From Chromatiales bacterium (GTDB taxonomy: Bacteria > Pseudomonadota > Gammaproteobacteria > RBG-16-57-12): a stretch of DNA of 64,000 nt. The stretch covers positions 29,146 through 93,145 of the forward strand of contig JALSJH010000022.1 of NCBI GenBank assembly GCA_026989455.1. Reading direction: 5' to 3'. This document shows positions 21,750-53,028 of this stretch, one piece after another. Numbering within the stretch: position 1 is the stretch's first letter; each line of letters starts with the position of its first letter. Under the pieces are notes generated by a model, which saw only the letters and a program-made list of their open reading frames with translations, did not search any database and was not told the origin of the DNA. A program made the translations under genes and the position numbers.

Positions 21750-22040
21750 ATGAAGCAGCAGCTACGATTCCTGTTTTCCCCGCTCCTCAGCCGGTTTGAG
21801 TCGGGAAACGAGCCATTCGATTACAAACCGTCTAACCGGGCTATTTTGGTGATTTTGGGTAGCCTGTTTGTCGGGCTGGCGACGCTGGTAACTGCATTTT
21901 CAAGCGGGGAAGATCTTAGCTATCTCTTCCCGGTGGTCGTTTTTGGTGGTATTGGTGCATTAAGCTTGGTGATCGGTTTTCTTGGTACGGATCGTGCGGT
22001 AGCGACGATATGGGGTAGTAAAAGAAAAAAACAGGGGTAA
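21750..22040 (+). CDS. Small two-TM membrane protein of unknown function
   Basis: 96-aa ORF with two hydrophobic helices. Its stop codon lies inside the terminal repeat of MITE copy A. Confidence 0.4.
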   Translation: MKQQLRFLFSPLLSRFESGNEPFDYKPSNRAILVILGSLFVGLATLVTAFSSGEDLSYLFPVVVFGGIGALSLVIGFLGTDRAVATIWGSKRKKQG

Positions 22041-22178
22041 CCATTCAGCGCATTCGTCTTCTGCCCCAACGCTTGGTTATTTTCGTGCTCAATCGGTCAC
22101 ATATTCCCTATATGCTCTCTTTTTGCGTGCGAAAAACACCTCAACTTGAGGCAAGGTCTAACTACGCTAAATAGTTAC
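22037..22178 (+). mobile_element. MITE-like element, copy A (about 85 percent identical to copy B)
   Basis: Shares terminal inverted repeats (gtaaccattcagcg ... cgctaaatagttac) and the internal hairpins with copies at 52793-52934 and 42186-42326. Confidence 0.65.
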
Positions 22179-36196: not shown

Positions 36197-38128
36197 ATGG
36201 CCATTAAAGATTTATCAGGACGTAATGCCGCCAAAGCCCGTCGCGATGCGCAACTTAACGGCTCCGCGACACTGCCGGCTAAGGCCAGCTCGAGCACTGC
36301 TCCACGGGTTCGCCCAAAGAGAAGTGCAAGTGCTGATAGCCAGCCCTCGGTCACTGTGACAGCCAAGCCAACTATTAGTAATGCACCTCGTGCCAAAGTG
36401 AAGACAGCGAGTGCCGGTCGTGAAGCATCACGCTCACGCCGTCACGCGATGTCTTCTCGCGGCAAGAGTGGCGTTGCCAGTAGTGATCGTCAGCGTGTTT
36501 TGGATGTTGCGCGCACTGCTCGTAAGAGTGCTCAAACTCAAGATTGCGGTTGTGGTTGCAAAGGTAAAGGCGATTGTGGTGATGCCGGTGTAGCAGTGAA
36601 TTCTGCGCCAGCGGTATCAACAGCAAATGCATCGGCAACACCGCGCCGCAGTCGCCATGATATTAAGGTGGTAACGGCGAGTAGTGCGGGTCGCATCAAT
36701 TCAAAAATGCGTCGCGATGCGATGGCAGCACACGGTAAAACAGGTGTGGATAGCTACCGTAAAGGGGTTAGTTCAGCGCAGATGGTGCGCAAGCAAAACC
36801 CTGATATTACCGGTCGTGAATTGGCGCGCACCGTGCGTGCTCAGCGCAGTGTTAGTGGTGGCAGCCAGAGTGCGGCGCGCTCGACAGGTCGCCGCCGTCC
36901 GGAACGCCCTGGGAGAGACGTGAGTGGCACCGTTGTGTCGCACAGCGAAAAAACCACGGGTGATGAGACGGGGCTTTGTCGTTCAGTGACGGGGACAGAC
37001 TACTTCTCAAGTGAGGTTTTTACTGAGTTTTGTCAGGACGAGGCACCTAATGTGCCGCGTAAAGTCGAAGCCAGTGAGAATCTGAGTGGTGGAGTGATTA
37101 CCGCGAGTGGCAAGGTAGGTCTTAGCGAAAAGGTGACGGGTAATGATCGCGGTAGTTGTAATGCGGTTACCGGTATTGAGTATGTGGGTCGTGAGCAGTA
37201 TGACAACTTTTGCAGCAGCAAGCCTGAGCCAGGCAGTGCAAAAGTAAGCTTTTCACAGACAACGCGTGGTCAGGTTGTATCGGGTTCCAAGCCAGCAAGA
37301 TCAGATCGGGTTAGTGGCAACGAAGCAGGTTCATGCGAAGTTGTTACCGGCACGCCCTATACCGGTACTGAGCACTATCAAAAGTACTGTGATACGGGCG
37401 CTGTCAAACAGGTCAAGCTGCGCACTGTGCGCCCTGCTGTTAATGCCGGGCGTGATATTACTGGTGTTCAGCCAGGTGTTACCAGTTTGACGGGTGCTGG
37501 CAAAGGTGTCTGCAGCGAAGTGAGTGGTACTGCATATCTTGGTGCCGAGCAGCAGGTTGAAGCTTGTGGTGTGTCACCAGCGGCAGTAAATGAGCCAGAC
37601 TTTCCGCAGCCATTGACGGATGCCCCTTGGGGTGCGTTCAGTGTAGTTGCTCCCGCTCAGGCGAGTCAGCCTGTTCAGGAGAGTCGACCAACAGCGATAT
37701 CGGATTCAGTTACCGGTATTCGTTATGAGCAAGGCCGCGTCAGTGGTACTTTCTCTCTTGGTGAGGGTAAGATTACCGGAACTGAACAGTTTCGTTTTGG
37801 TAATCCAAAGAGTCGCAACGAGACAGTAGCTACTAGTGCGAAAGCTGCACCGGTGGAAGATGTCGTCTCAAAAGTGACAGGTGAAGGTCTTGATGCAGGT
37901 TTGAAAATAACCGGCAATGATTGGAACCGAGGTGATCGAGTGACGGGAACGGAAGGTAGGTCTGCGGTTAAGCGCAACCCTACACGACGTGGCCCTGTTA
38001 GTGCGATGCCTTCTTCAGAACCTAAGCGTAATGAAGATGTTGATCGTAATGATATCAACGTTACCGGTGGAAGTGGCAGCACAGAAAGTGGTGCCCTGGT
38101 GACGCTATCAGGCGGTGCCCGAGGGTAA
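36197..38128 (+). CDS. csoS2: Carboxysome assembly protein CsoS2
   Basis: N-terminal Arg-rich repeats (RxxxxxRxxxxxGK-like, e.g. GRNAAKARRDAQLNGS). Middle repeats with paired Cys and VTG/VSG motifs. No other homolog class shows this pattern. The start was trimmed to MAIKDLSG. Confidence 0.9.
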   Translation: MAIKDLSGRNAAKARRDAQLNGSATLPAKASSSTAPRVRPKRSASADSQPSVTVTAKPTISNAPRAKVKTASAGREASRSRRHAMSSRGKSGVASSDRQRVLDVARTARKSAQTQDCGCGCKGKGDCGDAGVAVNSAPAVSTANASATPRRSRHDIKVVTASSAGRINSKMRRDAMAAHGKTGVDSYRKGVSSAQMVRKQNPDITGRELARTVRAQRSVSGGSQSAARSTGRRRPERPGRDVSGTVVSHSEKTTGDETGLCRSVTGTDYFSSEVFTEFCQDEAPNVPRKVEASENLSGGVITASGKVGLSEKVTGNDRGSCNAVTGIEYVGREQYDNFCSSKPEPGSAKVSFSQTTRGQVVSGSKPARSDRVSGNEAGSCEVVTGTPYTGTEHYQKYCDTGAVKQVKLRTVRPAVNAGRDITGVQPGVTSLTGAGKGVCSEVSGTAYLGAEQQVEACGVSPAAVNEPDFPQPLTDAPWGAFSVVAPAQASQPVQESRPTAISDSVTGIRYEQGRVSGTFSLGEGKITGTEQFRFGNPKSRNETVATSAKAAPVEDVVSKVTGEGLDAGLKITGNDWNRGDRVTGTEGRSAVKRNPTRRGPVSAMPSSEPKRNEDVDRNDINVTGGSGSTESGALVTLSGGARG

Positions 38129-38235
38129 TCGCAAAGCGATCTATAGTGTCGAGTGGTGAGGCGCAGTTTGTGCCTTGCCCCTCAGCTCTTAAATGAAGTG
38201 ATGTTTAACAAGAATTTTGGGTAGGCGGGTTGAGA

Positions 38236-39741
38236 ATGTTCAACAAAAAGACAAAAAGCAGGCGTCCAATGCAACGGCAGCAGTCGATGCAGCGGAGTGC
38301 GCAGCCCCCGGGCCACGCGTTAGCCAGTGGCACTTTGTCGAATAATGCACTGCACCCGTTTACCCGCAGTGCTGAAAATAGCCGCCTGTTTGCGTATGAG
38401 CAGCAGGTGAAGCAGGCATTTTCAGCTATTGAACCTTTTTTGCAGCGTCTTTCGGCGATGCAACATGAGGCCGATTTTGAGGCGCGTGCCCAGCAGCTTG
38501 CCAGTAGTGAGCTTGGATTTGAATTGCCAGCAACACTACTTGTTGATAGCTGGATTAAACCATTGGATATTGGTCAGCTTTACGCATGGTGCGTATTTGA
38601 GACCTTCCGCAGCATGTCGGATGATTTTTTTGATAGCAAGCCGTTGGCGGATGGTGATGATGCAGAGTTTCAGGCATTTTTAGAGCAGTGTGGCTTTCAT
38701 ACATTGGATGTTTCGCCCTGCGCTGATGGTCGTTTGGCTCACGTTATTCGTTATGTGTTACGTCTGCCATATAGAGCAGTCCGTCGTAAATCATATGCGG
38801 GTGCCATGTTTGATGTTGATGATAGCTTGCAGAAGTGGAGTGAAACGGAGATGCGTCGCTACCGCGAAGGGTATCCGAATCAGGCGGATGCGCCGACCCG
38901 CTATCTGAAAGTTGCAGTTTACCACCACAGCTCAAGCCAGCCCAACTGCGAAGGATGTGCAGCGCATGGCAGTGATACTCAGCGAGCGGCAGATGCCGCG
39001 CTGGAGCGTCTAAAGGATTTTCGTCAAGCTGTGGAGAATAGTTTTTGCTGTGGTGCATCAATCGACTTGTTGCTGATTGGCCTAGATACGGACAATGATG
39101 TGATTCGCCTGCATCTACCTGATGCCGATGGTGAAATAGACGCTTCGAGCTATATCGATGCGGCTGAGCTGCATCAGGCAACAAAAAGTGCCTCAACGAG
39201 CGGTGCTGAGACAGTTATTAGTGAGTACTTAAAAGCACAGAGTAGCTCGTTGCCCAGCGAAGGCATGGTGCAGTTGGCAGCCCGTCTTTTGTGTGGCAAT
39301 TTGTCACAAATTGATTATGTGCGCCAGTACCACAGCGGCTGCTATCAGGATATTGGGCATCAAGAGTGTTTCATCGGCATGGGAATCGGTTTTGAAGAGG
39401 TTCAACTGCGCAACCTAACTTACTTCGCCTATCTGCAAACGGTAGAAGAAGGGGCTAAGGATATGGATGTGGGTATCAAAATCTTCACTGGGCTGAATGC
39501 CAACCGAGGTTTGCCGATTCCAGTGGTGATTCGCTATGACTATCACAGCCATGTGCCGGGCGCGAGAGCGCGGGCTGAGGGGCGTTGCCATCAGATGGAT
39601 GCAGCGCTACGCAGCCGCTTTAGTGAGTACGCTGAGCGCGGCCTTTTGCACACCTTGTTGATGGTGCGGGATTGCAGTAACGATGCCAAAGCGGAGACGG
39701 TTGGTAGTTCTCTGAAACTAAATGAACAGGTAGCTCACTAG
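38236..39741 (+). CDS. csoSCA: Carboxysomal carbonic anhydrase CsoSCA (CsoS3)
   Basis: About 500 aa, at the canonical position after csoS2. Cys/His-containing catalytic region. Confidence 0.85.
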   Translation: MFNKKTKSRRPMQRQQSMQRSAQPPGHALASGTLSNNALHPFTRSAENSRLFAYEQQVKQAFSAIEPFLQRLSAMQHEADFEARAQQLASSELGFELPATLLVDSWIKPLDIGQLYAWCVFETFRSMSDDFFDSKPLADGDDAEFQAFLEQCGFHTLDVSPCADGRLAHVIRYVLRLPYRAVRRKSYAGAMFDVDDSLQKWSETEMRRYREGYPNQADAPTRYLKVAVYHHSSSQPNCEGCAAHGSDTQRAADAALERLKDFRQAVENSFCCGASIDLLLIGLDTDNDVIRLHLPDADGEIDASSYIDAAELHQATKSASTSGAETVISEYLKAQSSSLPSEGMVQLAARLLCGNLSQIDYVRQYHSGCYQDIGHQECFIGMGIGFEEVQLRNLTYFAYLQTVEEGAKDMDVGIKIFTGLNANRGLPIPVVIRYDYHSHVPGARARAEGRCHQMDAALRSRFSEYAERGLLHTLLMVRDCSNDAKAETVGSSLKLNEQVAH

Positions 39742-39992
39742 TGAAAATTTGTAAGGTTGAAAAACCCCTGGTGGCGACAAACCGCATCCCTGGTATGGAA
39801 CACAAGCATCTGCAAGTTGTGCTGGATGGAACTACCCGTATGGTCGCTGTGGATGCAGTTGGTTGTAATCCGGGTGATTGGGTGATTTGTGTAGGCAGTT
39901 CTGCTGCTCGTGAAGCGGCTGGAAGTAAAGAGTACCCGAGTGATCTGACTATTGTTGGCATTATCGATTATTGGGGTGAGGCCGCGGACTGA
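39741..39992 (+). CDS. csoS4A: Carboxysome vertex (pentamer) protein CsoS4A (EutN/CcmL family)
   Basis: 83 aa, KICKVEKPLVATNRIPG..., with a GTG start overlapping the csoSCA stop. Confidence 0.85.
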   Translation: MKICKVEKPLVATNRIPGMEHKHLQVVLDGTTRMVAVDAVGCNPGDWVICVGSSAAREAAGSKEYPSDLTIVGIIDYWGEAAD

Positions 39993-40282
39993 TGGAGATC
40001 TTGCAAGTGACGGGGTCACTGGTTTGTACTTTGCGCCACCCGGGGCTTTATCAAAATAGCTTGCGGGTGTTGCGAAGCAGTAGTGGCAAGTTGCAGGTTG
40101 CAGTAGATACCTGCGGTTGTCGTGATGGCAACTGGGTGTTCGTAGTGAGTGGTTCTGCCGCACGTTATGCATGCGGAGATCCGACACTGATGACTGATCT
40201 TACGATTGGTGGGATTATCGATTTTTGGGATGAAGAAACAGGACAGACGGAGCCGTCTGCCGAAGGTAGTGCTCTAAGTTAG
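39992..40282 (+). CDS. csoS4B: Carboxysome vertex protein CsoS4B
   Basis: Paralog of CsoS4A (MEILQVTGSLVCTLRHPGL...). The ATG overlaps the csoS4A stop. Confidence 0.85.
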   Translation: MEILQVTGSLVCTLRHPGLYQNSLRVLRSSSGKLQVAVDTCGCRDGNWVFVVSGSAARYACGDPTLMTDLTIGGIIDFWDEETGQTEPSAEGSALS

Positions 40283-40336
40283 GGTGCGAGAATTTTAAAT
40301 TAACAAGTAACGATTTACCAAGACGGAGATAGAGCA

Positions 40337-40639
40337 ATGAGCGAAAACAATTATGGTATTGCACTGGGCATGATTGAAACACGCGGTTTGGTTCCTGCTA
40401 TTGAAGCAGCAGACGCAATGACTAAGGCTGCTGAAGTACGCCTGATTGGACGTGAGTTTGTTGGTGGCGGTTACGTGACCATTCTGGTTCGTGGTGAGAC
40501 TGGCGCTGTTAATGCTGCTGTCCGTGCGGGTGCTGATGCCTGTGAGCGTGTGGGCGATGGCCTGGTTGCTGCTCACATCATTGCACGTCCACACAAAGAA
40601 GTTGAGCCTGTGCTGAGCATGAGCATTGGCGCTAGCTAA
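40337..40639 (+). CDS. csoS1: Carboxysome shell hexamer protein CsoS1 (BMC-H), copy 1
   Basis: Canonical BMC domain (YGIALGMIETRGLVPAIEAADAMTKAAEV...). Confidence 0.95.
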   Translation: MSENNYGIALGMIETRGLVPAIEAADAMTKAAEVRLIGREFVGGGYVTILVRGETGAVNAAVRAGADACERVGDGLVAAHIIARPHKEVEPVLSMSIGAS

Positions 40640-40685
40640 ACCACCCTGTAACTTTAAATTTTTTGATTAATGAAGGAGTATCACC

Positions 40686-40976
40686 ATGGCAAATGAAACA
40701 TATGGTATTGCACTGGGCATGATTGAGACCCGCGGTTTAGTTCCTGCTATCGAAGCAGCGGACGCAATGACTAAAGCGGCAGAAGTACGTCTAATCGGAC
40801 GTGAGTTTGTTGGCGGCGGTTATGTGACTATCTTGGTTCGTGGCGAAACAGGTGCTGTTAATGCAGCTGTTCGTGCAGGCGCTGATGCTTGTGAGCGTGT
40901 TGGTGATGGCCTTGTGGCAGCACACATCATTGCGCGTCCGCACAAAGAAGTTGAGCCGGTACTTGGTAGCAAGTAA
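40686..40976 (+). CDS. csoS1: Carboxysome shell hexamer protein CsoS1 (BMC-H), copy 2
   Basis: Core is identical to copy 1 at the protein level. It differs at the N- and C-termini and at synonymous sites. Confidence 0.95.
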   Translation: MANETYGIALGMIETRGLVPAIEAADAMTKAAEVRLIGREFVGGGYVTILVRGETGAVNAAVRAGADACERVGDGLVAAHIIARPHKEVEPVLGSK

Positions 40977-40991
40977 AGGCAATACGGCGAT

Positions 40992-41047
40992 GAGTCGGGA
41001 TATGACTGGAAGTTCTCCCTCTTTTTTATTCCAGTCATCTCCGACTC
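40992..41047 (+). other. Long intergenic hairpin between csoS1 and the bfr-like gene (attenuator/terminator candidate)
   Basis: gagtcgggatatgactggaa ... ttccagtcatctccgactc is a near-perfect 19-bp inverted repeat. The loop is T-rich. Confidence 0.5.
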
Positions 41048-41077
41048 AACATCGTTTATAGAGAGGCGTCTAAAATA

Positions 41078-41521
41078 ATGACACAGGATCCAGTAGTTCT
41101 CGGATATCTGGGACGCGCACTAAGCTTTGAGTTGTCTGCGGTACAGCAGTATATGTCGCTGGCAAAATTATTAGAGCTACGTGGTATGCCTCAGGCCGGG
41201 AAAAAATTCCGACATGAAGCAATGACTGAGATGGAGCATGTAGAGCGCCTGATTGGTCGAATGCTGGCTTTGGGGGTTTCACCCAATACCAGTTGTCTAA
41301 AACGCCCGCGCCTTAACGGTGCATTGCCAGAGCTGATTAAACACATCAGTGATTTGGAGGGTGAGATTATCAACTTTTATGAACAGGCGGTGCTCTATTG
41401 TAGCCAACGCCAGGATCATGAAAACCGAATTTTTTTTGCAGCATTGCTCAAAGATGAGCAGCAACATGCTACTGAGCTTAATAGCTGGTGGCAGGACATC
41501 ATGGAAGGTAAAGCCATTTAG
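41078..41521 (+). CDS. Carboxysome-associated bacterioferritin-like (ferritin-fold) protein
   Basis: Ferritin-like four-helix motifs (E..E..H). This position is typical in alpha-carboxysome operons. Confidence 0.8.
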   Translation: MTQDPVVLGYLGRALSFELSAVQQYMSLAKLLELRGMPQAGKKFRHEAMTEMEHVERLIGRMLALGVSPNTSCLKRPRLNGALPELIKHISDLEGEIINFYEQAVLYCSQRQDHENRIFFAALLKDEQQHATELNSWWQDIMEGKAI

Positions 41522-41541
41522 CATATAGATAGTTGAGTTGA

Positions 41542-41832
41542 TTGAGGAGAGACACCATGGGCTTGAATTGGAGTTTGCGAAAAAACCCAGTACGCCTTGA
41601 ATGCCGTGTTGAGTTTTCTGATTATGATGAGACTCGTGATTTTCTTGATCGGGCTGCGGAGTTAGCGGAAAAGCAAGGGTATTATCCTGATATGAGCTTT
41701 GGCCGGACTCACGTCTCAATAACACTGAGTCCGTTGGATGACTCAGGTGTCATCAGTGATGAGTTGAAAAACTATGCCGATTTGATGGATGAGTTGGTTC
41801 CCACTGAGCAGATTGTCGACCAAACCAAGTGA
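41542..41832 (+). CDS. Pterin-4a-carbinolamine-dehydratase-like protein (acRAF-type RuBisCO assembly factor)
   Basis: PCD fold signature (GYYPDMSFGRTHVSITLSPLDDSGVISD). Follows the bfr-like gene, as in other cso operons. Confidence 0.75.
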   Translation: MRRDTMGLNWSLRKNPVRLECRVEFSDYDETRDFLDRAAELAEKQGYYPDMSFGRTHVSITLSPLDDSGVISDELKNYADLMDELVPTEQIVDQTK

Positions 41833-41854
41833 TTAATGGCAAAAGGATAACAAA

Positions 41855-42154
41855 ATGACTGTTAATGAAAAAAATGTGGCTGGCTCAAAAAGCTCCACAG
41901 CAGCCGCAAAGCCCGCGACCACAAAGAAAGCCCCGGCAGTTACCAAGCCGCAGGTTAAAAAAACGCCCTCCGCTAGCCGCACTAAACCAAAACCTTCAAC
42001 CGCTACGGTCGCGCCCAAGAAGCCTCAGGTTAAAAAGCCGACTTCTGCAGCCGCAACAAAATCACCTGCCAAAAGAGTGACTCCCCGTACTAAGGCTCAG
42101 CAGCCAGAAAGTTCAGGCTCACTCTCTGCTTCTCGCCGGGTTTGGCCTGACTAA
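41855..42154 (+). CDS. Lys/Pro/Ala/Thr-rich, intrinsically disordered basic protein (McdB-like or histone-H1/AlgP-like)
   Basis: 99 aa of low complexity (KPATTKKAPAVTKPQVKK...) ending ...RRVWPD. RBS aagga 8 nt upstream. Last gene of the cso operon. Confidence 0.5.
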   Translation: MTVNEKNVAGSKSSTAAAKPATTKKAPAVTKPQVKKTPSASRTKPKPSTATVAPKKPQVKKPTSAAATKSPAKRVTPRTKAQQPESSGSLSASRRVWPD

Positions 42155-42185
42155 GATAGTAAACGTGTTGTTGCGTTGATAATTC

Positions 42186-42326
42186 GTAACTATTCAGTGT
42201 GTTTAGATTTTGCTTCAAATCAAGGCATTTTCGCACGGAGAGAGGGAGCATATAGGAGGTGTGTGACCGATTGAGTACGAAAATAACGAAGAGTTGAGGG
42301 AAAAGATGAATACGCTGAGTAGTTAC
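42186..42326 (-). mobile_element. MITE-like element, copy C (inverted), with an 8-bp target-site duplication GATAATTC
   Basis: Reverse complement aligns full-length to copies A and B. Flanked by a perfect direct repeat gataattc at 42178-42185 and 42327-42334. Confidence 0.75.
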
Positions 42327-42428
42327 GATAATTCATATGTACGGTTTTGTTTATAACGAAACCATCACTGTCCAGAGATAATGTAGGTTGTTTAGGCGCC
42401 GCCTAGCAGCGAGTGTAAGGAGCTAAAA

Positions 42429-43469
42429 ATGTCGAATCTGAGCAATTTACTGTTACCCGCAGTACTGTTTTTTGCGCTTGGTGTCATCGCTAGATTAATC
42501 AAGTCAGATCTTAAATTCCCCCCTGACCTAGCAAAGGTTCTATCTATTTACCTATTGATGGCGATAGGTCTGCATGGTGGCTATGAGTTGGCTAAGGCTG
42601 ACCTAGTGATCGCTATGAACTCCATTATGTGGGCGCTGATTCTGGGCTTTACCTTGCCAATAATTGGCTATCTAGCACTGGTGATGACGCGTAAAGTTAA
42701 CCCACTGGATGCCGCTGCAATCTCGGCTCATTATGGTTCAGTGAGTGCTGGAACCTTTCTTACCGCAATCGCCTATCTTGATAATGTCGGTGTTACTTAC
42801 GAAACCTATCCATTGATCATGTTGGCAGTAATGGAGTCACCTGCGATTGTTGTAGGTTTGATCCTTGCCGCCAAAGCGCGTCATAGTATTGCTGCTCGTG
42901 AAAAAGCACCCATCTCGGGTGGAGGCGCTGATCTTACAACCACAGCCGTGGCTGCTGACAGCCCAGGCGGGAAGTTTACTGATCTTCTCCGCGAGGCCTT
43001 TACTAATGGCAGTGTAGTGGTGCTGATAGGCTCAATGGTTATTGGTGCTATCTCTACGCCAAGTGGCATGCAGCAGCTCTTCCCTTTCATCGATGAGATC
43101 TTCATGGGCGTGCTCTGCTTGTTCTTGTTCGATATGGGTATGGTTGCGGCACGTCGTATTGGTGACTTCCGCCAAGTGGGGTGGTTGCTGGCTCTATTCG
43201 GGATTGTTATGCCACTTTTTGGCGGCGTGATAGGTGCCTATGTTGGCCACTCTATTCTCGGCTTTAGTGTCGGTGGCGCAACGTTGGTTGCGGTGCTGGG
43301 TGCCAGCGCATCTTATATTGCGGTGCCGCCTGCTATGCGACTGGCAATACCAGAAGCTAATCCATCGTTTTATCTAACCCTCTCATTGGGAATAACCTTT
43401 CCCTTTAATGTTATAGTGGGTATACCCATTTACCACAGTTTGGTACAGGCAATGGCCGCAGCCGGTTGA
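42429..43469 (+). CDS. sbtA: Sodium-dependent bicarbonate transporter SbtA family permease
   Basis: About 10-TM permease with an SbtA/DUF897-like inverted-repeat architecture. Followed by a PII-like sbtB. Confidence 0.8.
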   Translation: MSNLSNLLLPAVLFFALGVIARLIKSDLKFPPDLAKVLSIYLLMAIGLHGGYELAKADLVIAMNSIMWALILGFTLPIIGYLALVMTRKVNPLDAAAISAHYGSVSAGTFLTAIAYLDNVGVTYETYPLIMLAVMESPAIVVGLILAAKARHSIAAREKAPISGGGADLTTTAVAADSPGGKFTDLLREAFTNGSVVVLIGSMVIGAISTPSGMQQLFPFIDEIFMGVLCLFLFDMGMVAARRIGDFRQVGWLLALFGIVMPLFGGVIGAYVGHSILGFSVGGATLVAVLGASASYIAVPPAMRLAIPEANPSFYLTLSLGITFPFNVIVGIPIYHSLVQAMAAAG

Positions 43470-43506
43470 GGCTGCTCTGCCCAATAGACTAATAAGAGGT
43501 GACCTA

Positions 43507-43827
43507 ATGATAAAGTTGTACCCTGAAAAGCTGCTGAGTATTATCACCAATGACTCGATGCAGGAACGCCTAGAGTGTATGTTCAAAAAATATGATATTT
43601 CTGGTTTTACCATTTTGCAAGCAACTGGGGAAGGCTCCTCAGGAATGGAATCAGCAATGTCTGGCTTTGATGGTAATATTCTGGTGAAAGTAATCGTCAC
43701 CGAGAGCCAGTTGCAGATCCTGCTTGAGAGCGTTGAACGTAAGTTGCAAAAAGGTTACCACCTTACGGTTTTTGTCTCTGATGTTGAGGTCATCACGCCT
43801 GAAAAATTTAAGAACAGATCGAAGTAG
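43507..43827 (+). CDS. sbtB: PII-like signalling protein SbtB
   Basis: 106-aa PII-fold protein (FKKYDISGFTILQATGEG...) directly downstream of sbtA. Confidence 0.8.
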   Translation: MIKLYPEKLLSIITNDSMQERLECMFKKYDISGFTILQATGEGSSGMESAMSGFDGNILVKVIVTESQLQILLESVERKLQKGYHLTVFVSDVEVITPEKFKNRSK

Positions 43828-43861
43828 CATTGGAAGTACCGTTGTATTTGACTGGAAATAG

Positions 43862-44881
43862 ATGATGACCGAACAGCGTGACTCCAGATTTAAAGATGGG
43901 TTGCCGGATTACCTGATTCGTAATACTACCTTTAGGCAGATGCAAATTTTTGAAGCGGTAGCGCGCTTGGGCAGCTTTACCCGTGCCGCTGAAGAGCTTT
44001 TTTTGACACAACCCACGGTCTCCACGCAGCTCAAGAAAATGACAGATGTGATGGGTTTACCGCTACTCGACCAATCATCTCGTCAAATTAAACCGACTGA
44101 GGCGGGTGAGGAGCTTTACCGCGCTGTACGGAGGATTTTTGACTCCTTGTCTGACCTTGATACGCGGATAGCGGCACTCAAGGGGTTGCAGCATGGCCGC
44201 TTGCGTTTAGGGGTTATCACCACCGCCAAGTATTTTGCTCCAGAGATATTGGGCGATTTTTGGCGTGAGTATCCAGGTGTGGATATTTCGCTAAAAGTGA
44301 CCAACCGCAACCGTATCATCGAACGCATTCAAAATAATGAAGACGACCTCTATATTTTGGGGCAACCACCGGATAAAGAGTTTAATCTTGCGGCCTACCC
44401 ATTTGCACCTAACCCGATGGTGGTGATTGCGGGAAAGGATCACCCCCTCTACCAGGAGTCCAGTATCTCTCTTGAGCGCTTGGCTGAAGAGCCTTTTATC
44501 TCACGAGAAGTTGGCTCAGGTATCCGCGATACCACAATGAAACGGTTTGCAGAGCATGGGCTATCACCCAATATTCGCATGGATTTGGGTAGTAATGAAG
44601 CGATTAAACATGCGGTAATCGGTGGCTTGGGGGTGGCTATTCTCTCCCTGCATACGCTGGTGTTGGATGGGGCAGATGGCCCACTTGGGGTGCTTGATGT
44701 TGAAGGTTTCCCCATCGCCAGAACGTGGTACCTTGCGCATCCAAAGGATAAAGAGCTCTCTCCTATGGCGCAGACTTTTCTCGATTTTGCTAGGGCGAGC
44801 GAACCGGTTATCAGTGAGCGCATGCGGAGTTTGTACGCGCAGTTTTCTGCCCGCCACAAGAGTATAGCGACTACTAAATAG
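43862..44881 (+). CDS. LysR-family transcriptional regulator (CbbR-like) embedded in the CCM cluster
   Basis: N-terminal HTH (FRQMQIFEAVARLGSFTRAAEELFLTQPTVSTQLKKM) and a LysR substrate-binding domain. Confidence 0.9.
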   Translation: MMTEQRDSRFKDGLPDYLIRNTTFRQMQIFEAVARLGSFTRAAEELFLTQPTVSTQLKKMTDVMGLPLLDQSSRQIKPTEAGEELYRAVRRIFDSLSDLDTRIAALKGLQHGRLRLGVITTAKYFAPEILGDFWREYPGVDISLKVTNRNRIIERIQNNEDDLYILGQPPDKEFNLAAYPFAPNPMVVIAGKDHPLYQESSISLERLAEEPFISREVGSGIRDTTMKRFAEHGLSPNIRMDLGSNEAIKHAVIGGLGVAILSLHTLVLDGADGPLGVLDVEGFPIARTWYLAHPKDKELSPMAQTFLDFARASEPVISERMRSLYAQFSARHKSIATTK

Positions 44882-44933
44882 TAGAGCTAAGCAGAAATAA
44901 TCTTTGAAATTTTCGAGGCGATAGAAGCGCAAT

Positions 44934-45575
44934 ATGATCAAGTTACGAACCTACATATTTATTGATTCGCTACAGCCTCAGCTAGCCGTCTATCTTGGCA
45001 CTGTTTCACAAGGCTTTTTACCTGTACCGGGCGATGCCTGTTTGTGGATTGAGGTTGCGCCAGGTATGGCCGTGCACAGGCTCACTGATGTCGCGCTTAA
45101 ATCCACCCGTGTCCATCTAGGTCAACAGGTTGTTGAGCGAGCTTTTGGCTCAATGATTTTTCACCATCGTGACCAGAGTGACGTTATTGAGGCGGGTAGC
45201 TCGGTTTTAAACCAGCTTAAAACCACTGAAGATCAACGTCAAAAGTGTCGTGTCGCCTGGAGTGAAGTGGTGCGCTCGATTACACCCGATCACGCGGTGT
45301 TGATTAATCGTCAAGATCGTAAAGGCTCGATGATTCTGCCTGGGCAGAGCCTGTTTATTTTAGAAACCGAACCAGCGGGCTATATTGTTTATGCGGCCAA
45401 TGAGGCGGAAAAGGCGGCAAATATCACTCTGGTTGACTGTCGTGCAGTGGGTGCTTTTGGTCGACTCACCCTTGCAGGGAAAGAGGCCGATATTGATGCG
45501 GCAGCCCACGCTGCAGTGGCTGCGGTGCAACGTCTCTCTGGGGTAGTTGCCCATGCGCAAGTTCACCACCACTGA
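44934..45575 (+). CDS. csoS1D: Tandem-BMC-domain shell protein (CsoS1D-like pseudohexamer)
   Basis: Two degenerate BMC-like domains. The second contains [29 protein letters not shown]. Confidence 0.65.
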
Positions 45576-45653
45576 TTTGACCTGAGTCAAGGTTGTTTTA
45601 GGCCAATGTGATTGACTGTTCTACCTCTCTATAAACTTCTGTAGGGTATATGT

Positions 45654-47921
45654 ATGAATGAAGCACCACAAAATGGGCTAAAAGGCCTCAAACATTGGCG
45701 TTACGATCTGCTGGCAGGCCTACAGGTTGCGCTGGTCTCACTGCCTCTCTCTCTGGGTATCGCTATTGCATCGGGTGCCCCTCCGGTTACCGGTCTTATC
45801 TCAGCTATTATCGCGGGTTTTATTTTCCCTTTTCTAGGGGGTGCCTATGTCACCATTAGCGGTCCTGCTGCTGGCCTAGCTCCTGCTTTATTAGCGGGAA
45901 TGTTGTTGCTGGGTGGTGGTGATCTGGCGGTGGGTTATCCGCTGTTGTTGGTGGCTATCTGTCTTACCGGCATGGTGCAAATTATATTGGCTTTTTTTAA
46001 GACCGGCCGTTACGCAATTTTCCTTCCCGTTACTGTGGTAGAGGCGATGCTCGCCGCTATTGGGCTGATGATTATTATCAAACAGATTCCATCTCTGATG
46101 GGAGCTATATCACCCGCATCACAAAGTATGCTGGAGACGATCAGTAAACTACCCTTGGCGATTCCTCAGCTGGAGTGGAGTATCTTTTTTATTGGCGCTC
46201 TGAGTCTATTCTTGATGTTTTATCTGAATGCCTCGCGCCATGATTGGATGCGTAAAATCCCACCGCCACTACTTGTTGCCTGTCTTGGTATCGGCTTGGG
46301 TTATCTTTTTAACCTTGATGGTAAATTTCTGATTACCATGCCAGAAAATCTACTGGAAGGTGGGATTACATTTCCAGCTTTTGATGAAGTGTTGAACCGT
46401 CCTGAGTTGTGGTGGAGTGTACTGTTGGTGGTGATTACACTGACGCTGATCGATGGCGTTGAATCATTGGCAACCATCAAGGCGGTGGACAAAATTGATC
46501 CTTTTCAGCGTAAATCAGATGCTAATATTACCTTGCGCACCATGGGTATTTCCAATTCACTCTCCAGTGTTTTTGGTGGCTTAACGATTATTCCGGGTGG
46601 TGTCAAAAGCCGCGTTAATATCGATGCTGGTGGGCGTACATTGTGGGCGAATTTTTATAACGCTATTTTTCTACTTATTTTCCTGTTTGTGGCTATCGAT
46701 GTCATTGCTAGGGTTCCTCTGGCTGCGATTGCGGCAATCTTGATCTACGTTGGTTGGAAATTATGTGAATACAAAGTATTCACCAAAACCTACGCTATTG
46801 GCCGTGATCAGATTGTAATTTTCGTTATTACGGTTCTCGCTATTTTAGCGACAGATCTGCTGTCTGGGATTCTACTAGGTGTTGCGGCAGAAGTGTTGAT
46901 GCTGCTCTATCTGCTGACACCATCATTTCGCGCTGTATTGACCGGGCGACTGGGGTTGGGGCAATCTTTTTCATTGGTGTGGGTAAATCTGCGAGGCCTA
47001 TTTTGTGATCCGGTGATTACGGTTGCCCAGAAGGCGCGTAATGGTGAGCCTCACTATGAGGTGACATTATCATCTGTTGTCTGCTTTAATCTGATACATC
47101 TTGATAAGCTGCTTGCCAATCTCCCTCCACAGGCGGGTGTTACGCTGATTATTACTGAGTCTGGTCGTATTATTGATCATACCGGTATGGAGTATCTTCA
47201 CCAGTTCCAAGATGAGTGCATGCGCGATAAGCGGGCTTTTGAGCTGCTGGGGCTGGAAAATTTTTTCCAATTCACTAATCACTCACTCTCAGCACGTATG
47301 CAGGATTCAACCGTGCTCAAGGAGGAGCGGAAGCGCTCGGAACGTGAAATCCAGATGGAGAAGTTCGCACAGCAGTGGGGGCTGAAGTTAGAGCTGGGTA
47401 CGGCCACGATTCATAATGAACATGACTTCGTCTACCTGCGTCGGGGTTCAGACAAGCAGGAGTGTAACGTGATGTCTGGCAGTGTCCATGGCTATGATAT
47501 TCGATTGGCTGACTACAGTCATACGGCTGCACCAGACTACTATTCAAAACATTGGCACACTACGATCACTTCACAATGCCCTGTTTCAGGTGTTGCTGAT
47601 TTTGTTATTGCTCCTGGCCATTATCTACGACGTTATCTGGCCGATTATCGTGAAATTGAGTCAGTGAGAGAGGGCGCTCTTCCTGGTAATTATCGACTTT
47701 ACGCCAAAGAGGGTGAAGATCCTTCACCCTACATCTCTTCTGGACTACTCGCCTTTTTGCAAAGCAATGAGGGACTCTACCTAGAGGTTAGAAACGGTAA
47801 CATGTTGGCTTTCAATCGAAATAAAGAGTTGCTGAGTGCAGCGGAAATAGAGCAGCTGTTTGCGCTGGTGGAGATGTTAAATGGGGCTTGTACCGAAGCG
47901 TTGAGTCAAAACGAAGAGTAA
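45654..47921 (+). CDS. SulP-family anion transporter (BicA-like bicarbonate transporter candidate) with STAS domain and an unassigned ~200-aa C-terminal extension
   Basis: SulP signature LKHWRYDLLAGLQVALVSLPLSLGIAIASGAPPVTGL and a STAS-like region. At 755 aa it is longer than typical SulP proteins. Confidence 0.88.
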   Translation: MNEAPQNGLKGLKHWRYDLLAGLQVALVSLPLSLGIAIASGAPPVTGLISAIIAGFIFPFLGGAYVTISGPAAGLAPALLAGMLLLGGGDLAVGYPLLLVAICLTGMVQIILAFFKTGRYAIFLPVTVVEAMLAAIGLMIIIKQIPSLMGAISPASQSMLETISKLPLAIPQLEWSIFFIGALSLFLMFYLNASRHDWMRKIPPPLLVACLGIGLGYLFNLDGKFLITMPENLLEGGITFPAFDEVLNRPELWWSVLLVVITLTLIDGVESLATIKAVDKIDPFQRKSDANITLRTMGISNSLSSVFGGLTIIPGGVKSRVNIDAGGRTLWANFYNAIFLLIFLFVAIDVIARVPLAAIAAILIYVGWKLCEYKVFTKTYAIGRDQIVIFVITVLAILATDLLSGILLGVAAEVLMLLYLLTPSFRAVLTGRLGLGQSFSLVWVNLRGLFCDPVITVAQKARNGEPHYEVTLSSVVCFNLIHLDKLLANLPPQAGVTLIITESGRIIDHTGMEYLHQFQDECMRDKRAFELLGLENFFQFTNHSLSARMQDSTVLKEERKRSEREIQMEKFAQQWGLKLELGTATIHNEHDFVYLRRGSDKQECNVMSGSVHGYDIRLADYSHTAAPDYYSKHWHTTITSQCPVSGVADFVIAPGHYLRRYLADYREIESVREGALPGNYRLYAKEGEDPSPYISSGLLAFLQSNEGLYLEVRNGNMLAFNRNKELLSAAEIEQLFALVEMLNGACTEALSQNEE

Positions 47922-47951
47922 GCGGAAACGATAACTTATCCGCTCCCTTGA

Positions 47952-48503
47952 TTATGCTCGCATGCGTCGAACTTTCTGTACCATGCGATGCAGTGAGCGC
48001 GCATGGTTAAAGTGAGAAACCTGATCTAACGGTATCCAGCCAATCTGATGGGACTCATCATTACCCGGAATGGGTATAGAGTCATCAATCTCCAGCAAAA
48101 AACGGATATCAAAGTGTTGATGGCGCTCATCATGCGCATTGGGGTGGATAGTATGCACGTCCACATCAAAAATATTTTCACTCACCAGCCGGATATTCTC
48201 TATATCAACGCCGGACTCCTCCGATGTCTCCTTCAATACTACGCGAATAATATCGTGATCCCCATCGGCATGGCCACCCGGTTGCAACCAGCGGTCAAGC
48301 TTACGATGGTGCATCATCAGAGCATGGGTGCGTGAAGGATTCACCACCCAAGATGACCCCGTTACATGACCCGCAGCAAGAGTGCGATCAAAGCAGTTCT
48401 GATGCTGTGCGACAAAACGGCGGGAACGTGCCACCATGGCAGCCTCTTCCATAAAGGGTGTTTTGTAGTCGGTGAGTAGTTGCAGAAGTTGTTGTCTGTG
48501 CAT
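47952..48503 (-). CDS. NUDIX hydrolase
   Basis: Nudix box GGHADGDHDIIRVVLKETSEESG. Confidence 0.85.
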   Translation of the reverse strand: MHRQQLLQLLTDYKTPFMEEAAMVARSRRFVAQHQNCFDRTLAAGHVTGSSWVVNPSRTHALMMHHRKLDRWLQPGGHADGDHDIIRVVLKETSEESGVDIENIRLVSENIFDVDVHTIHPNAHDERHQHFDIRFLLEIDDSIPIPGNDESHQIGWIPLDQVSHFNHARSLHRMVQKVRRMRA

Positions 48504-48723
48504 GGTAATAAATATCTACATCGATGAAAGAGCTGACCGCTAGAAGAATAACTGTTTTTTTAAATATACGCGAATCTGAGTGGGCTTTAATATTCAAATT
48601 CTCTCTGTTTCTATGCGAGGATTAGGGGTGTTCAACTGAACTTGTTGCCAGGTCTAATGTGCTTTGGCGTGATACATGCATTATTTTGGTTATGTGTAAA
48701 TATATTGACGCAAGGGGGCTTGA

Positions 48724-49521
48724 TTGAACATCTGGGCGGTTGCCAATCAGAAAGGGGGGGTTGGTAAAACAACGACAACGGTCTCCCTGGCAGGACTGCT
48801 CTCCGCCAAGGGGTATCGTACCTTAGTGGTTGATATGGATCCCCATGGCTCGCTAACGGTCTATTTTGGCCATGACCCTGACACCATAGAAAGGAGTGTC
48901 TATTCGCTGTTCCAAGTGCCTAACATTGCTTCCAGCGACATGCCCAGGCGGGTGATAAAGCAGACTCGCTTTGAAGGTCTTGATTTACTACCCGCATCGA
49001 CGGCTATGGCAACGCTTGACCGCCAGTTGGGAACTCAGGATGGTAAAGGGTTGGTAATCCTTAGGGCGCTACAGCAATTGGCTGATCGTTATGACTATGT
49101 TTTGATCGACTGTCCACCGATTTTAGGGGTTTTAATGGTTAACGCCATGGCGGCCTGTCAGAGCTTATTGATTCCGGTGCAGACCGAGTTTTTGGCGTTG
49201 AAGGGGCTGGAGAGAATGATGCGTACTACCGCGATGATTACTAGAGCACGCAGAAGCCCGCTCGGGTTGCACATTGTTCCCACGATGTTTGATCGTCGCA
49301 CCCGCGCCTCCCATGAGGCACTTAAGCAGTTACAGAGCGATTACCCCGAGCAGCTCTGGGATGCCGTGATACCCATCGATACCCAGTTTCGTGAGGCGAG
49401 CCGCAAAGGGGTGCCTCTGCCCATTATGCGAGCGAATAGCCGCGGCTCGATTGCTTATCGTGAGCTACTGACGTGGCTGCAGGAGATCTATCCAGCTGAC
49501 AGCAGAGCAGCCGAGTCGTGA
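48724..49521 (+). CDS. parC: ParA/MinD-family ATPase of the chemotaxis-associated ParC type
   Basis: Deviant Walker A (NQKGGVGKTTT). Resembles Vibrio ParC. Followed by a ParP-like CheW-domain protein and cheW. Start is TTG. Confidence 0.8.
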   Translation: MNIWAVANQKGGVGKTTTTVSLAGLLSAKGYRTLVVDMDPHGSLTVYFGHDPDTIERSVYSLFQVPNIASSDMPRRVIKQTRFEGLDLLPASTAMATLDRQLGTQDGKGLVILRALQQLADRYDYVLIDCPPILGVLMVNAMAACQSLLIPVQTEFLALKGLERMMRTTAMITRARRSPLGLHIVPTMFDRRTRASHEALKQLQSDYPEQLWDAVIPIDTQFREASRKGVPLPIMRANSRGSIAYRELLTWLQEIYPADSRAAES

Positions 49522-50219
49522 TGGCACAGTTTGAAGATGAAAATGACTCTAAAGCGCTGGTAGAGCAGAAGCAGGCGCTGAGCAATTATCTGGATGCTCT
49601 GTTCAGGGAGCTGCCAGTGATTGAACCTGAACCCATAGCTAGCCCTGTGGCGGATGAGGTTGTGGTGGCTAAAGTGGCCGCAACGGATCTGCCTAAAGAA
49701 CCCGTAGTGGCATCCTCGGAGGAGGTGACTGCTCAGGCGGCTGAAAATGAAGAGCCAGTGCCTGTATACTTTCAGCCCACGGCACCCTTTCAGGTGCTGT
49801 TTTTTAGTCTTGGTAAGTTGAATCTTGCGGTGCCATTGGAACATCTTTCGGGTGTTTTGAAAGTTGCCGATGAGAAGGTGACCCCGATCCCTGGCTATGC
49901 GGAGTGGCACCTTGGATTGATGAAATACCACGGGGCAACGGTGAGTGTCATCGATACGGCAAAACTGATCATGCCTGCCCATCGTCAGGACGTTGTCCAA
50001 GATCAACGTAAATATCGCTACTTTATTCTATTGGGTGAGCGTCGCTGGGGGCTGGGCTGCCACGCCATAGCAGAAGTGGTAAAACTTGATCCCGGTGAAG
50101 TGAAGTGGCGTAAAAATCGCACTCTTCAGCCATGGTTGGCGGGCACGGTTATCAATAAAATGTGTGCATTGATTGATGTTGATGGTTTCCTTAAACTTCT
50201 AAGCAAGGGTTACTTATAA
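49518..50219 (+). CDS. parP: ParP-like protein (acidic disordered N-terminus plus CheW-like domain)
   Basis: The N-terminal E/P/A-rich region is followed by a CheW-like fold. Position between parC and cheW. Confidence 0.65.
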   Translation: MMAQFEDENDSKALVEQKQALSNYLDALFRELPVIEPEPIASPVADEVVVAKVAATDLPKEPVVASSEEVTAQAAENEEPVPVYFQPTAPFQVLFFSLGKLNLAVPLEHLSGVLKVADEKVTPIPGYAEWHLGLMKYHGATVSVIDTAKLIMPAHRQDVVQDQRKYRYFILLGERRWGLGCHAIAEVVKLDPGEVKWRKNRTLQPWLAGTVINKMCALIDVDGFLKLLSKGYL

Positions 50220-51205: not shown

Positions 51206-51484
51206 TTAATCACTACAATCGGGGGTTTTATCACTGAGCCAATAGGCAAACGCAATAATCTCTGCAACGGAGAGGTAGAGCTCTTCAGGGATTTCATCCC
51301 CTAGGTTCAATGCAAGCAGTAGCTCTACCAGATAGGCGTTTTCCATCAGCGGAATATTGCTCTGCTGTGCTAATTCAATAATCTGTTCAGCAAGCTCCCC
51401 TTGTCCTATCGCACTGACTGTTGGTGCGTTTTCCTTATCATAGCTGAGCGCGATTGCACGGCGCACTTTCTCACTTCTTTTCAT
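51206..51484 (-). CDS. FlhB C-terminal-domain-like protein (EscU/YscU/HrcU family switch domain)
   Basis: About 90 aa (AIALSYDKENAPTVSAIGQGELAEQIIELAQQSNIPLMENAYLVELL) that resembles the FlhB C-terminal domain. Confidence 0.8.
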   Translation of the reverse strand: MKRSEKVRRAIALSYDKENAPTVSAIGQGELAEQIIELAQQSNIPLMENAYLVELLLALNLGDEIPEELYLSVAEIIAFAYWLSDKTPDCSD

Positions 51485-52767
51485 GCTTTAACATCCAGTA
51501 AACCACGGAGTGATTTTGGAGGCTGTGGTGGTGTGGGTATCCCTTGGTGACAATTGATTTCGGCAACGGTGAGCCCCTGTTTTTCCAGTCCTCTCTTGAG
51601 CACTTCCAGGTAGGGGGTGATCAGTTGCGACTCTTCGCTCCAGAGATGGGTGATCAGCTCCCTCCCTTTTAAATTGACGTTAACACGCAAAAGCCCCAAA
51701 TGGGGCAGCGTGAGTTCTATAGTGACTTGCCAACTCGCTTGTAGGTTATCAGTTCCACCGGTGCTGTTTTGTTGAATGTGCAGCTTCAGTAGCGAGAGTT
51801 CACCATTTTTTATAACCGGAATCTCAACATACCAAGGGGGCCTGGCATCATCTTGAGTGGGCAGGTTGGTGAGCTGGTTTAACTGCTGCCTAGCCAGCGC
51901 CCCCTCCACCTTTTCACCCAGGTTTTTTAACAGTTTTAATGAGGGTTGCAGCTCCTGACTGCTGTTACCTGTTTCAGGTTTATGACTCCGTGTGGCTGCC
52001 TTTTGTTCCCTTTTAAACAGTAGATCCCAAAGTGACATGGGTGAGGTGATAGGGTGGAGGGTGGTTTTTGAAGTATGAGCTGATAGTGTGAGATGGCTCT
52101 GCTGAGCCGTACGACTCTCTTTGATGAGCAACGCAAGCCGTAGCAGCTGTGCTTTAAGGTCATGGTTAACCGCATGGCCACTTTTTAGGTTGCCCATCAG
52201 CTCTTTTGCCAGGCTTTGCTCTAAAAAGGGCCCTGAGTTTAGGAGCGCTTGCTTCAGGCTATGGGCCTGACTGATTGCACGACTATCGGGTAGTGATTTT
52301 TGAATCTTTAGGAGTGCCTTTGTAATTGAATCAGGCAAAAGGCCGGCACTGTTTTGTTTTAAGAGCGTGCTCAGTGTTTGATCGAGTGGTAACTGCTTTA
52401 CAACTGCACTACGCAGGGCTTGCTGAATGTTCTGTTGTGCGGGGGTGGGTGATGCCATTCGCAATTGCAGGGTTGGGTGAGTGCGCGTCACAACCAGCTC
52501 AACTTTTTGGCCGACTTGTAAGGGGAGGGCGCTTTTAAGCTGTAGCTGAAGGTTGCCACTTTTTAAGGTGTATTGTTGGGAGGAGCTGTAGTTGCTGACA
52601 CGAGCTGTTAGCTGCTCGCCCAGTTTAAGTAAGCTGTGCCCAGTTTGGCGTTGTGATTTTGCTTGAGTCACCTCAAGCATCGGTTGAAGGCGGTTTGTCT
52701 GTGGGCTCTCGATCTTCATCTGTTGGTTTTTACCGCTGCTTGAGGTGGATATATAGCCGTCGGCCAA
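51481..52767 (-). CDS. Flagellar hook-length control protein FliK-like
   Basis: Q/L/S-rich 428-aa protein directly upstream of the flhB-like gene. This pairing is typical. Confidence 0.65.
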   Translation of the reverse strand: MADGYISTSSSGKNQQMKIESPQTNRLQPMLEVTQAKSQRQTGHSLLKLGEQLTARVSNYSSSQQYTLKSGNLQLQLKSALPLQVGQKVELVVTRTHPTLQLRMASPTPAQQNIQQALRSAVVKQLPLDQTLSTLLKQNSAGLLPDSITKALLKIQKSLPDSRAISQAHSLKQALLNSGPFLEQSLAKELMGNLKSGHAVNHDLKAQLLRLALLIKESRTAQQSHLTLSAHTSKTTLHPITSPMSLWDLLFKREQKAATRSHKPETGNSSQELQPSLKLLKNLGEKVEGALARQQLNQLTNLPTQDDARPPWYVEIPVIKNGELSLLKLHIQQNSTGGTDNLQASWQVTIELTLPHLGLLRVNVNLKGRELITHLWSEESQLITPYLEVLKRGLEKQGLTVAEINCHQGIPTPPQPPKSLRGLLDVKA

Positions 52768-52792
52768 CGCGTCGCGTTAATGAAGTTTTTTG

Positions 52793-52934
52793 GTAACTAC
52801 TCAGCGTATTCATCTTTTGCCCCAACTCTTTGTTATTTTCGTACTCAATCGGTCACATATTCCCTATATGTTCCCTCTTTGCGTACGAAAATGCCTCGAT
52901 TTGAGGAAAAATATAAACACGCTGAATAGTTACG
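52793..52934 (+). mobile_element. MITE-like element, copy B, with imperfect TSD gtttttt(g/a)
   Basis: TIRs gtaactactcagcg ... cgctgaatagttac. Two internal hairpins and a promoter-like TTGAGG-N16-TGAATA at its 3' end. Confidence 0.7.
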
Positions 52935-53028
52935 TTTTTTATCATTACGGTGAAGTGAATAATGGTTAGCTGTACGGGGAAGAGATAAACGGGGACAAGT
53001 GGCCCCTAAGCCCATATAATAATGCGTT

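Follow-up and report, generated by a model that had tools for sequence, protein, structure and literature searches.

A 141-bp MITE-like insertion with IS66-type termini between the cso operon and sbtAB

Does the 141-bp segment that separates the cso operon from sbtAB in the 64-kb stretch of DNA analysed here (the window) belong to this junction, or did it arrive there by transposition? Ferritin-like and pterin-4a-like genes and a 99-aa ORF lie upstream of the segment, and genes for Sbt_1, P-II and LysR proteins lie downstream (Pfam; coordinates in Table 1). Between the stop codon of the last ORF of the cso cluster (42154) and the ATG of sbtA (42429) the spacer measures 274 bp; the initial annotation had placed the segment in the right spacer but gave its length as 275 bp. 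The genes sbtA, sbtB (P-II) and lysR, a CsoS1D-like BMC gene and a gene for a 755-aa SulP-family transporter (together 42429-47921) directly follow the cso operon, and the block from sbtA to the SulP gene is syntenic in four of four relatives (L060-L066). This arrangement suggests that the cso operon and the sbtA-SulP block form one conserved CO2-concentrating supercluster.

Table 1. Coordinates of the element, its flanking features and related copies (window positions unless a locus is named).
Feature	Coordinates	Strand	Remarks
Last ORF of the cso cluster, 99 aa, no Pfam family	41855..42154	+	Conserved in relatives; stop codon 31 nt upstream of the element
Target-site duplication, left copy GATAATTC	42178..42185	.	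Window sequence; only one TGATAATTC in the relative L060
141-bp MITE, as judged from family membership	42186..42326	+	+ is the G/U-rich strand that folds well, in the sense of cso and sbtA
Left terminal inverted repeat GTAACTATTCAGTG	42186..42199	+	Sequence and family consensus; same termini on 1.7-kb IS66-family elements
Right terminal inverted repeat CGCTGAGTAGTTAC	42313..42326	+	Reverse complement GTAACTACTCAGCG; same termini on 1.7-kb IS66-family elements
Target-site duplication, right copy GATAATTC	42327..42334	.	Window sequence
sbtA (Sbt_1 bicarbonate transporter)	42429..43469	+	Pfam E 1.6e-112; ATG 102 nt after the element
sbtB (P-II-like)	43507..43827	+	Pfam
Diverged MITE copy	22037..22178	- (G/U-rich strand)	Flanking 8-mers AAACAGGG and AAATAAGA, 5/8 match
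Third MITE copy	52793..52933	- (G/U-rich strand)	Target-site duplication GTTTTTTG at 52785-52792 and GTTTTTTA at 52934-52941, 7/8
Sister elements, examples	L076 4325-4503; L077 1108-1238; L099 4653-4806; L116 5445-5598; L176 2363-2537		

On both sides the segment is directly abutted by an exact copy of the AT-rich octamer GATAATTC, as read from the window sequence. The initial annotation had described a MITE with a perfect 8-bp duplication at 42178-42334, and this description was borne out. The inverted ends of 14 bp are likewise present. However, this copy has 12 complementary positions out of 14 and not 13 as had been stated, both mismatches being G·U-compatible on the + strand, and the terminal sequences that had been quoted for it are those of the copy at 52793 and of the family consensus. 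The consensus ends recur in at least 90% of the copies. The element, of 141 bp here and 132-143 bp across the family copies, is non-coding and too small for a transposase. One of its ends had also been read as promoter-like and pointing back into the cso operon, but a sigma-70 consensus scan of 41800-42600 returned no site on either strand. In the same interval the scan for intrinsic terminators on the + strand was negative.

A profile search of the window found only three copies, with nhmmer E-values of 1e-45 to 1e-47. As previously noted, the 42186 copy is the reverse complement of the other two, with which it aligns end to end at 78% identity (22037-22178) and 89% identity (52793-52933; the end of this third copy had been set at 52934). 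Similarity among the three stops exactly at GTAAC...GTTAC. The copy at 22037-22178 is an older, more diverged copy of the same MITE. A 96-aa ORF without a Pfam family (21750-22040) has its stop codon TAA at 22038-22040, within the first four bases (GTAA) of this copy; the ORF may therefore have received its end, or a new one in place of the old, from the insertion. The third copy separates two divergent genes and is upstream of both: a FliK-like gene (51481-52767, - strand), whose start is 26 bp away, and a DUF455 gene (53029-53847, + strand), at a distance of 96 bp. The - strand, on which this copy folds well, has the sense of the FliK-like gene. A weak nhmmer match at 49524-49588 (E = 0.043) has none of the end sequences of the element and was not counted as a further copy.

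Outside the window the element belongs to a dispersed family. For the family search one genome per species was scanned for the invariant core TTTCGTNCTCAATCGGTCAC, which returned 57 loci, 56 of them from four gammaproteobacterial MAGs: MC-02 (JAFLJP01), 13_Jan_SF_Bin23 (JAOTSL01), a "Polarisedimenticolaceae" bin (JAKITT01) and an "Ectothiorhodospiraceae" bin (CALZJE01). None of these MAG loci stems from the window genome. The remaining locus, in a Mycobacteriales bin, was a chance match that the profile did not hit. The further copies that the initial annotation had proposed to look for are numerous, since nhmmer reports 69 in the 56 loci of the four MAGs, most of them 140-141 bp long and spanning the profile end to end, and at least 53 matches to the 141-bp family were added by metagenome contigs. 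Similarity between family copies always stops at GTAAC...GTTAC. Partial nhmmer hits (L001 3189-3252, L018 and L054) have no transposase-sized ORF adjoining them and resemble truncated remnants. The MITE had no match among PLSDB plasmids (blastn-distant).

The flanks of these copies bear directly on the question of transposition. The 8-nt flanks of 44 full-length copies are identical in 18 cases and match at seven of eight positions in another 10 (28/44 together), all in the same register, and two more of the 44 copies show a perfect flanking repeat after a 1-nt shift of the boundary. When left and right flanks of different copies were paired as a control, matches of 8/8 arose in 0% and matches of 7/8 in 0.3% of the pairs, and the flanking octamer is thus not the coincidence that had been considered as an objection. 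The insertion targets of the family are A/T-rich, of 83 copies none interrupts a long ORF, and the same element sequence adjoins unrelated genes elsewhere. Judged on sequence, the element is a MITE: every feature of a prokaryotic MITE that can be tested at this level was found, which supports the earlier interpretation of 42186-42326 as the product of a transposition event. It is an ordinary kind of element, cleanly documented here.

The site before insertion can be seen in related genomes. The SbtA of the window also occurs on an ENA contig (L058), which matches window 36429-49469 at 99.985% identity with the element included, and on a Logan contig (L059), the first base of which corresponds to window 42271, inside the element. 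ENA ERZ27262642 and SRR7968108 contain the strain of the window as well. Four relatives encode SbtA proteins that are 96, 94, 93 and 92% identical to the window SbtA. Their contigs share the order csoSCA, two EutN, two BMC, ferritin, pterin-4a, small ORF, sbtA, sbtB, lysR, csoS1D-like and SulP, and the spacers between the small ORF and sbtA measure 138, 147, 136 and 141 bp, respectively, compared with the much longer spacer of the window. In all four (L060, L061, L065 and L066) the element is a clean gap in the spacer alignment, and in the window it sits upstream of a spacer segment that is conserved between the relatives. If the element and one GATAATTC are removed, the alignment of the window with its closest relative (L060, GCA_054044125.1) passes through just one TGATAATTC and continues into RTATGT...GGTTTT.GTTTATAACGAA, which both have in common. 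This is the empty site with a single octamer at the orthologous cso-sbtA junction that the initial annotation had anticipated. MC-02 has at least 24 family copies elsewhere in its genome, and its cso-sbtA site is empty. The gap in the four relatives, including one with so many copies at other places, means that the insertion is specific to the lineage of the window and that a conserved cso-sbtA junction does not include the element.

Which transposase could have moved an element of this size? Scanning of metagenomes with the terminal 18-mer GTAACTACTCAGCGTRTT returned at least 120 loci. In at least seven of them correctly oriented pairs of termini stand 1705-1724 bp apart, each pair enclosing one ORF of ~ 469 aa that matches the Pfam domain DDE_Tnp_IS66 (PF03050, E 9.2e-46) and the NCBIfam model transpos_IS66 (NF033517, 292 bits at a cut-off of 180). 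The transposases of the other loci are 61-81% identical to that of L091. All of the 1.7-kb elements are bounded by GTAACTACTCAGCG...CGCTGAGTAGTTAC, and their 14-18-nt ends are identical to those of the MITE. Perfect 8-bp duplications flank the elements in L092 and L110, and several other IS copies are without a clean duplication. Most IS copies share ~ 18 nt with the MITE and one shares up to ~ 40 nt; in L106, 30 of the first 40 nt of the IS end are in common with the MITE arm. Homologues annotated as "IS66 family transposase" are found in Methyloprofundus, in methanotrophic symbionts of Bathymodiolus and in other marine Gammaproteobacteria, most of them on stand-alone contigs of ~ 1.7-2.5 kb. 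Orphan TIR-like matches in MAG loci (L027, L046, L052 and others) were considered as IS ends and rejected, as the neighbouring ORFs are ordinary genes, e.g. for cNMP-binding/rhodanese proteins, radical SAM proteins or biotin synthase.

Within the IS66 family, elements of the ISBst12 group have a size of ~ 1.4-1.9 kb. The group is defined by a single ORF and the lack of the accessory genes tnpA/tnpB, and its member ISDge4 of Deinococcus geothermalis, for which transposition was observed experimentally, has the TIRs GTGACTACTCAGCA and GTAACTGCTCAGCA and an 8-bp repeat (PMC12898284). For IS66 itself, inverted repeats starting with GTAAGCG and direct repeats of 8 bp are described (PMC11946415). 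The 1.7-kb elements fit the ISBst12 group by their single ORF, their length, inverted repeats that start with GTAA (GTAAC) and 8-bp repeats. The element in the window resembles this group in its near-identical termini (GTAACTATTCAGTG/GTAACTACTCAGCG), in the 8-bp target duplication that it has in common with ISDge4, and through its 1.7-kb relatives with a single transposase ORF carrying the DDE_Tnp_IS66 domain; an IS with matching ends and 8-bp duplications, as the initial annotation had envisaged, is thus at hand. In contrast to these elements, the window element has 141 bp and no ORF and is therefore not an IS, and its interior is a palindrome that is unrelated to the IS interior beyond ~ 18-40 nt.

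The same ends are found on other short elements. At least 35 further elements of 127-260 bp (examples in Table 1) have the same GTAACTACTCAGCG termini and unrelated interiors, and 22 of the 35 have flanking repeats that match at seven or eight of eight positions, 15 of them being perfect 8-bp repeats. From their sequences, these ends look like a mobilisation system with several independent MITE families. No IS66-type transposase was found within the 64-kb window or in the retrieved parts of the MITE-bearing MAGs, and blastn of the IS-bearing metagenome contigs against the window lineage gave a single 66-nt match only, so these contigs are not tied to that lineage; for these reasons we can only infer that the MITE and its IS66-type partner reside in one genome. 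A limited search of the literature gave no IS66-derived MITE in the publications examined, and IS66 is unmentioned in a 2024 review and in a 2024 survey of prokaryotic MITEs. On plasmid pA of Oceanisphaera sp. IT1-181 (NZ_CP136857.1, ~ 13.5-15.1 kb; L188 377-1946) a 1570-bp element of the IS66/ISBst12 type was encountered, apparently intact and with GTAACTATTCAGCT inverted repeats. Its transposase and the metagenomic one share 52% amino acid identity, in a tblastn match of two joined pieces that leaves room for an interrupted ORF; no CDS is listed for the element in the gene table of PLSDB, a table that is incomplete.

The interior of the element has a structure of its own. All 141 nt form an imperfect palindrome, and when folded as RNA the 42186 copy reaches a minimum free energy of -58.9 kcal/mol on the + strand, as one long hairpin (z = -10.4), compared with -25.4 kcal/mol on the - strand. 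Of 79 distinct copies, 78 show this asymmetry, the means of the two strands being -60.8 and -43.5 kcal/mol. Its source is the large number of stem positions that pair as G·U on one strand and are hence A·C on the other. The sister families are strongly self-complementary too, but their strand asymmetry is much weaker. In an alignment of 40 sequences the consensus hairpin comprises 47 pairs and 96.4% of the cells are paired. Seventeen of the 47 pairs have changed on both sides, whereas shuffled alignments gave 6.1 ± 1.8 (0 of 500 reached 17) and slid controls 6-11, and in some subfamilies (L007, L035, L039 and L069) the inner arms are entirely different yet still complementary. Minor pair states common to at least three copies are 14 G·U, 9 alternative (compensated) Watson-Crick and 2 A·C, whereas those private to one copy are mostly disruptive, with 9 G·U, 13 A·C and 32 other mismatches; the two distributions differ (Fisher p = 0.006). 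Because of this difference between common and private variants, the hairpin seems to be maintained on one strand in propagating lineages and to decay after insertion. That the full-length hairpin is under selection on one particular strand in the propagating lineages, and not in the individual inserted copies, is a tentative idea that we hold to be doubtful. If it were true, the single-stranded form of one strand, as transcript or as DNA hairpin, would matter for the life cycle of IS66/ISBst12-type MITEs. Where the flanking genes are co-directional, 17 copies are in sense and 9 in antisense orientation to them (p = 0.17, with a crude longest-ORF gene caller), and since this bias is not significant the orientation split gives no support for an RNA role at the level of the host.

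We consider it very probable that the element is a non-autonomous MITE with the termini of the ISBst12 group of IS66, mobilised in trans and inserted in the lineage of this strain. An ISBst12-group transposase supplied in trans would have recognised the 14-18-bp termini GTAACTAYTCAGCG, which the element has in common with the ISBst12 group, the single-ORF branch of the IS66 family, and would have integrated the element into the AT-rich GATAATTC. Staggered cuts 8 bp apart, followed by repair, would then have left the flanking duplication. The insertion would have taken place after the strain of the window split from its closest sequenced relative. Mobilisation in trans by the IS66-type transposase is probably what happened in this host as well, as far as the identity of the ends can tell. 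Any read-through transcript from cso to sbtAB would contain a stem of ~ 65 bp, beginning 31 nt past the last stop codon of the cso cluster and ending 102 nt before the start of sbtA, because the better-folding strand is the sense strand here.

Other explanations have to be weighed against this one. A position between functionally linked CO2-concentrating genes, in an intergenic spacer, and a very stable hairpin on the sense strand are what one would expect from a conserved cis-regulatory RNA or DNA element proper to the cso-sbtAB junction, such as an attenuator, a riboswitch or an operator. With the element missing from the junction in the four closest relatives, one of which retains a single octamer, with the same sequence standing beside unrelated genes elsewhere, and with no Rfam match at the gathering threshold over the window or even at E ≤ 1 over 42100-42450, we regard this explanation as extremely improbable. 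A repeat of the REP/BIME or ERIC type, spread by recombination or by a Y1 enzyme (RAYT/IS200-IS605 type) and flanked by the same 8-mer through coincidence, would also be palindromic, intergenic and multi-copy, and the strand-asymmetric hairpin is reminiscent of single-strand recognition. However, most copies of the family and of the sister families with the same termini are directly flanked by 8-bp duplications, the termini match those of a DDE element of the IS66 family, and elements of the RAYT/IS200 type are not known to make duplications, all of which leaves hardly any probability for such a repeat. The MITE could instead have been moved by a transposase that is not of the IS66/ISBst12 type, the shared termini being convergent or derived from an unrelated element. 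The IS6, ISL3, IS256 and IS1595 families make 8-bp duplications as well, and the window and the retrieved MAG loci yielded no partner IS that shares a genome with the MITE. But the end sequences of those families differ from IS66-type ends, and the exact match of 14-18 terminal nucleotides to at least seven diverse IS66-family elements, and to ISDge4, makes a different transposase very unlikely.

The remaining alternative accepts the insertion and adds a function. This MITE copy might have been co-opted, its sense-strand hairpin now acting as an RNase III/E site or as a 3' stabiliser that uncouples or tunes the expression of cso and sbtAB. Read-through from cso to sbtA is plausible because neither a + strand terminator nor a sigma-70-like promoter was detected between the cso cluster and sbtA, and the strand that folds well is the sense strand at this locus. 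In the apical stem of the 42186 copy, A-to-G changes have kept the pairing only via G·U. Correia and ERIC MITEs are known targets of RNase III/E (PMC10969869), and insertions of hairpin MITEs are often described as co-transcribed with neighbouring genes (PMC10969869; PMC2229807). By analogy with these MITEs the hairpin could be a processing or stabilising site in a cso-sbtAB mRNA, and from the predicted fold it may affect the processing or stability of the cso or sbtAB mRNA and the expression of sbtAB. Nevertheless, we hold co-option to be unlikely: the insertion is recent and strain-specific, the orientation bias is not significant, and the private mutations are mostly disruptive and lack a bias towards G·U (9 G·U versus 13 A·C), which speaks for decay after insertion rather than for selection at the level of the host.

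As a MITE with IS66-type ends, the element can be compared with the known families of small bacterial repeats. Neisseria Correia/CREE, enterobacterial ERIC/IRU and pneumococcal RUP elements are of 100-200 bp, intergenic and multi-copy, with TIRs and a target-site duplication, and pair along their whole length; the window element is similar in all of this. The conserved full-length hairpin, predicted here from the alignment, is a further point of resemblance to RNA-active MITEs of the Correia/ERIC type. Unlike these families, to which it has no sequence similarity, the window element is flanked by a duplication of 8 bp, whereas Correia and ERIC elements duplicate TA. In addition, a matching autonomous partner of the IS66 family can be identified here, and there is no promoter-like site at the window element in the scan of 41800-42600. 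REP/BIME sequences with their RAYT enzymes are likewise palindromic intergenic repeats with strand-specific hairpin features. The window element has no sequence relation to REPs, which are ~ 20-40 bp long, lack the architecture of TIR and target-site duplication and are tied to Y1 transposases, while 8-bp duplications, DDE-type termini and a unit of 141 bp are found here.

Occupied site, empty site, duplication, family and autonomous partner together make an unusually complete case from sequence alone, and they connect a MITE family, together with several sister families that end alike, with the ISBst12 group of IS66. Strains with and without the insertion are a natural pair in which an intercistronic stem of 65 bp can be set against the coupling of both halves of the CO2-concentrating mechanism. 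Many copies lie at ends of MAG and Logan contigs, among them those in L010, L016, L026, L043 and L049 of MC-02 and at position 1 of L059, where the contig begins inside the window element. The MITE repeat is therefore a recurrent assembly breakpoint in these genomes, and it contributes to the fragmentation of genomes of uncultured sulfur-oxidiser-like Gammaproteobacteria. On two contigs, copies were found in close pairs ~ 140-310 bp apart (L019, 4349-4489 and 4803-4943, in the same orientation; L160, 12498-12638 and 12777-12917), which hints at local hopping or at an insertion hotspot.
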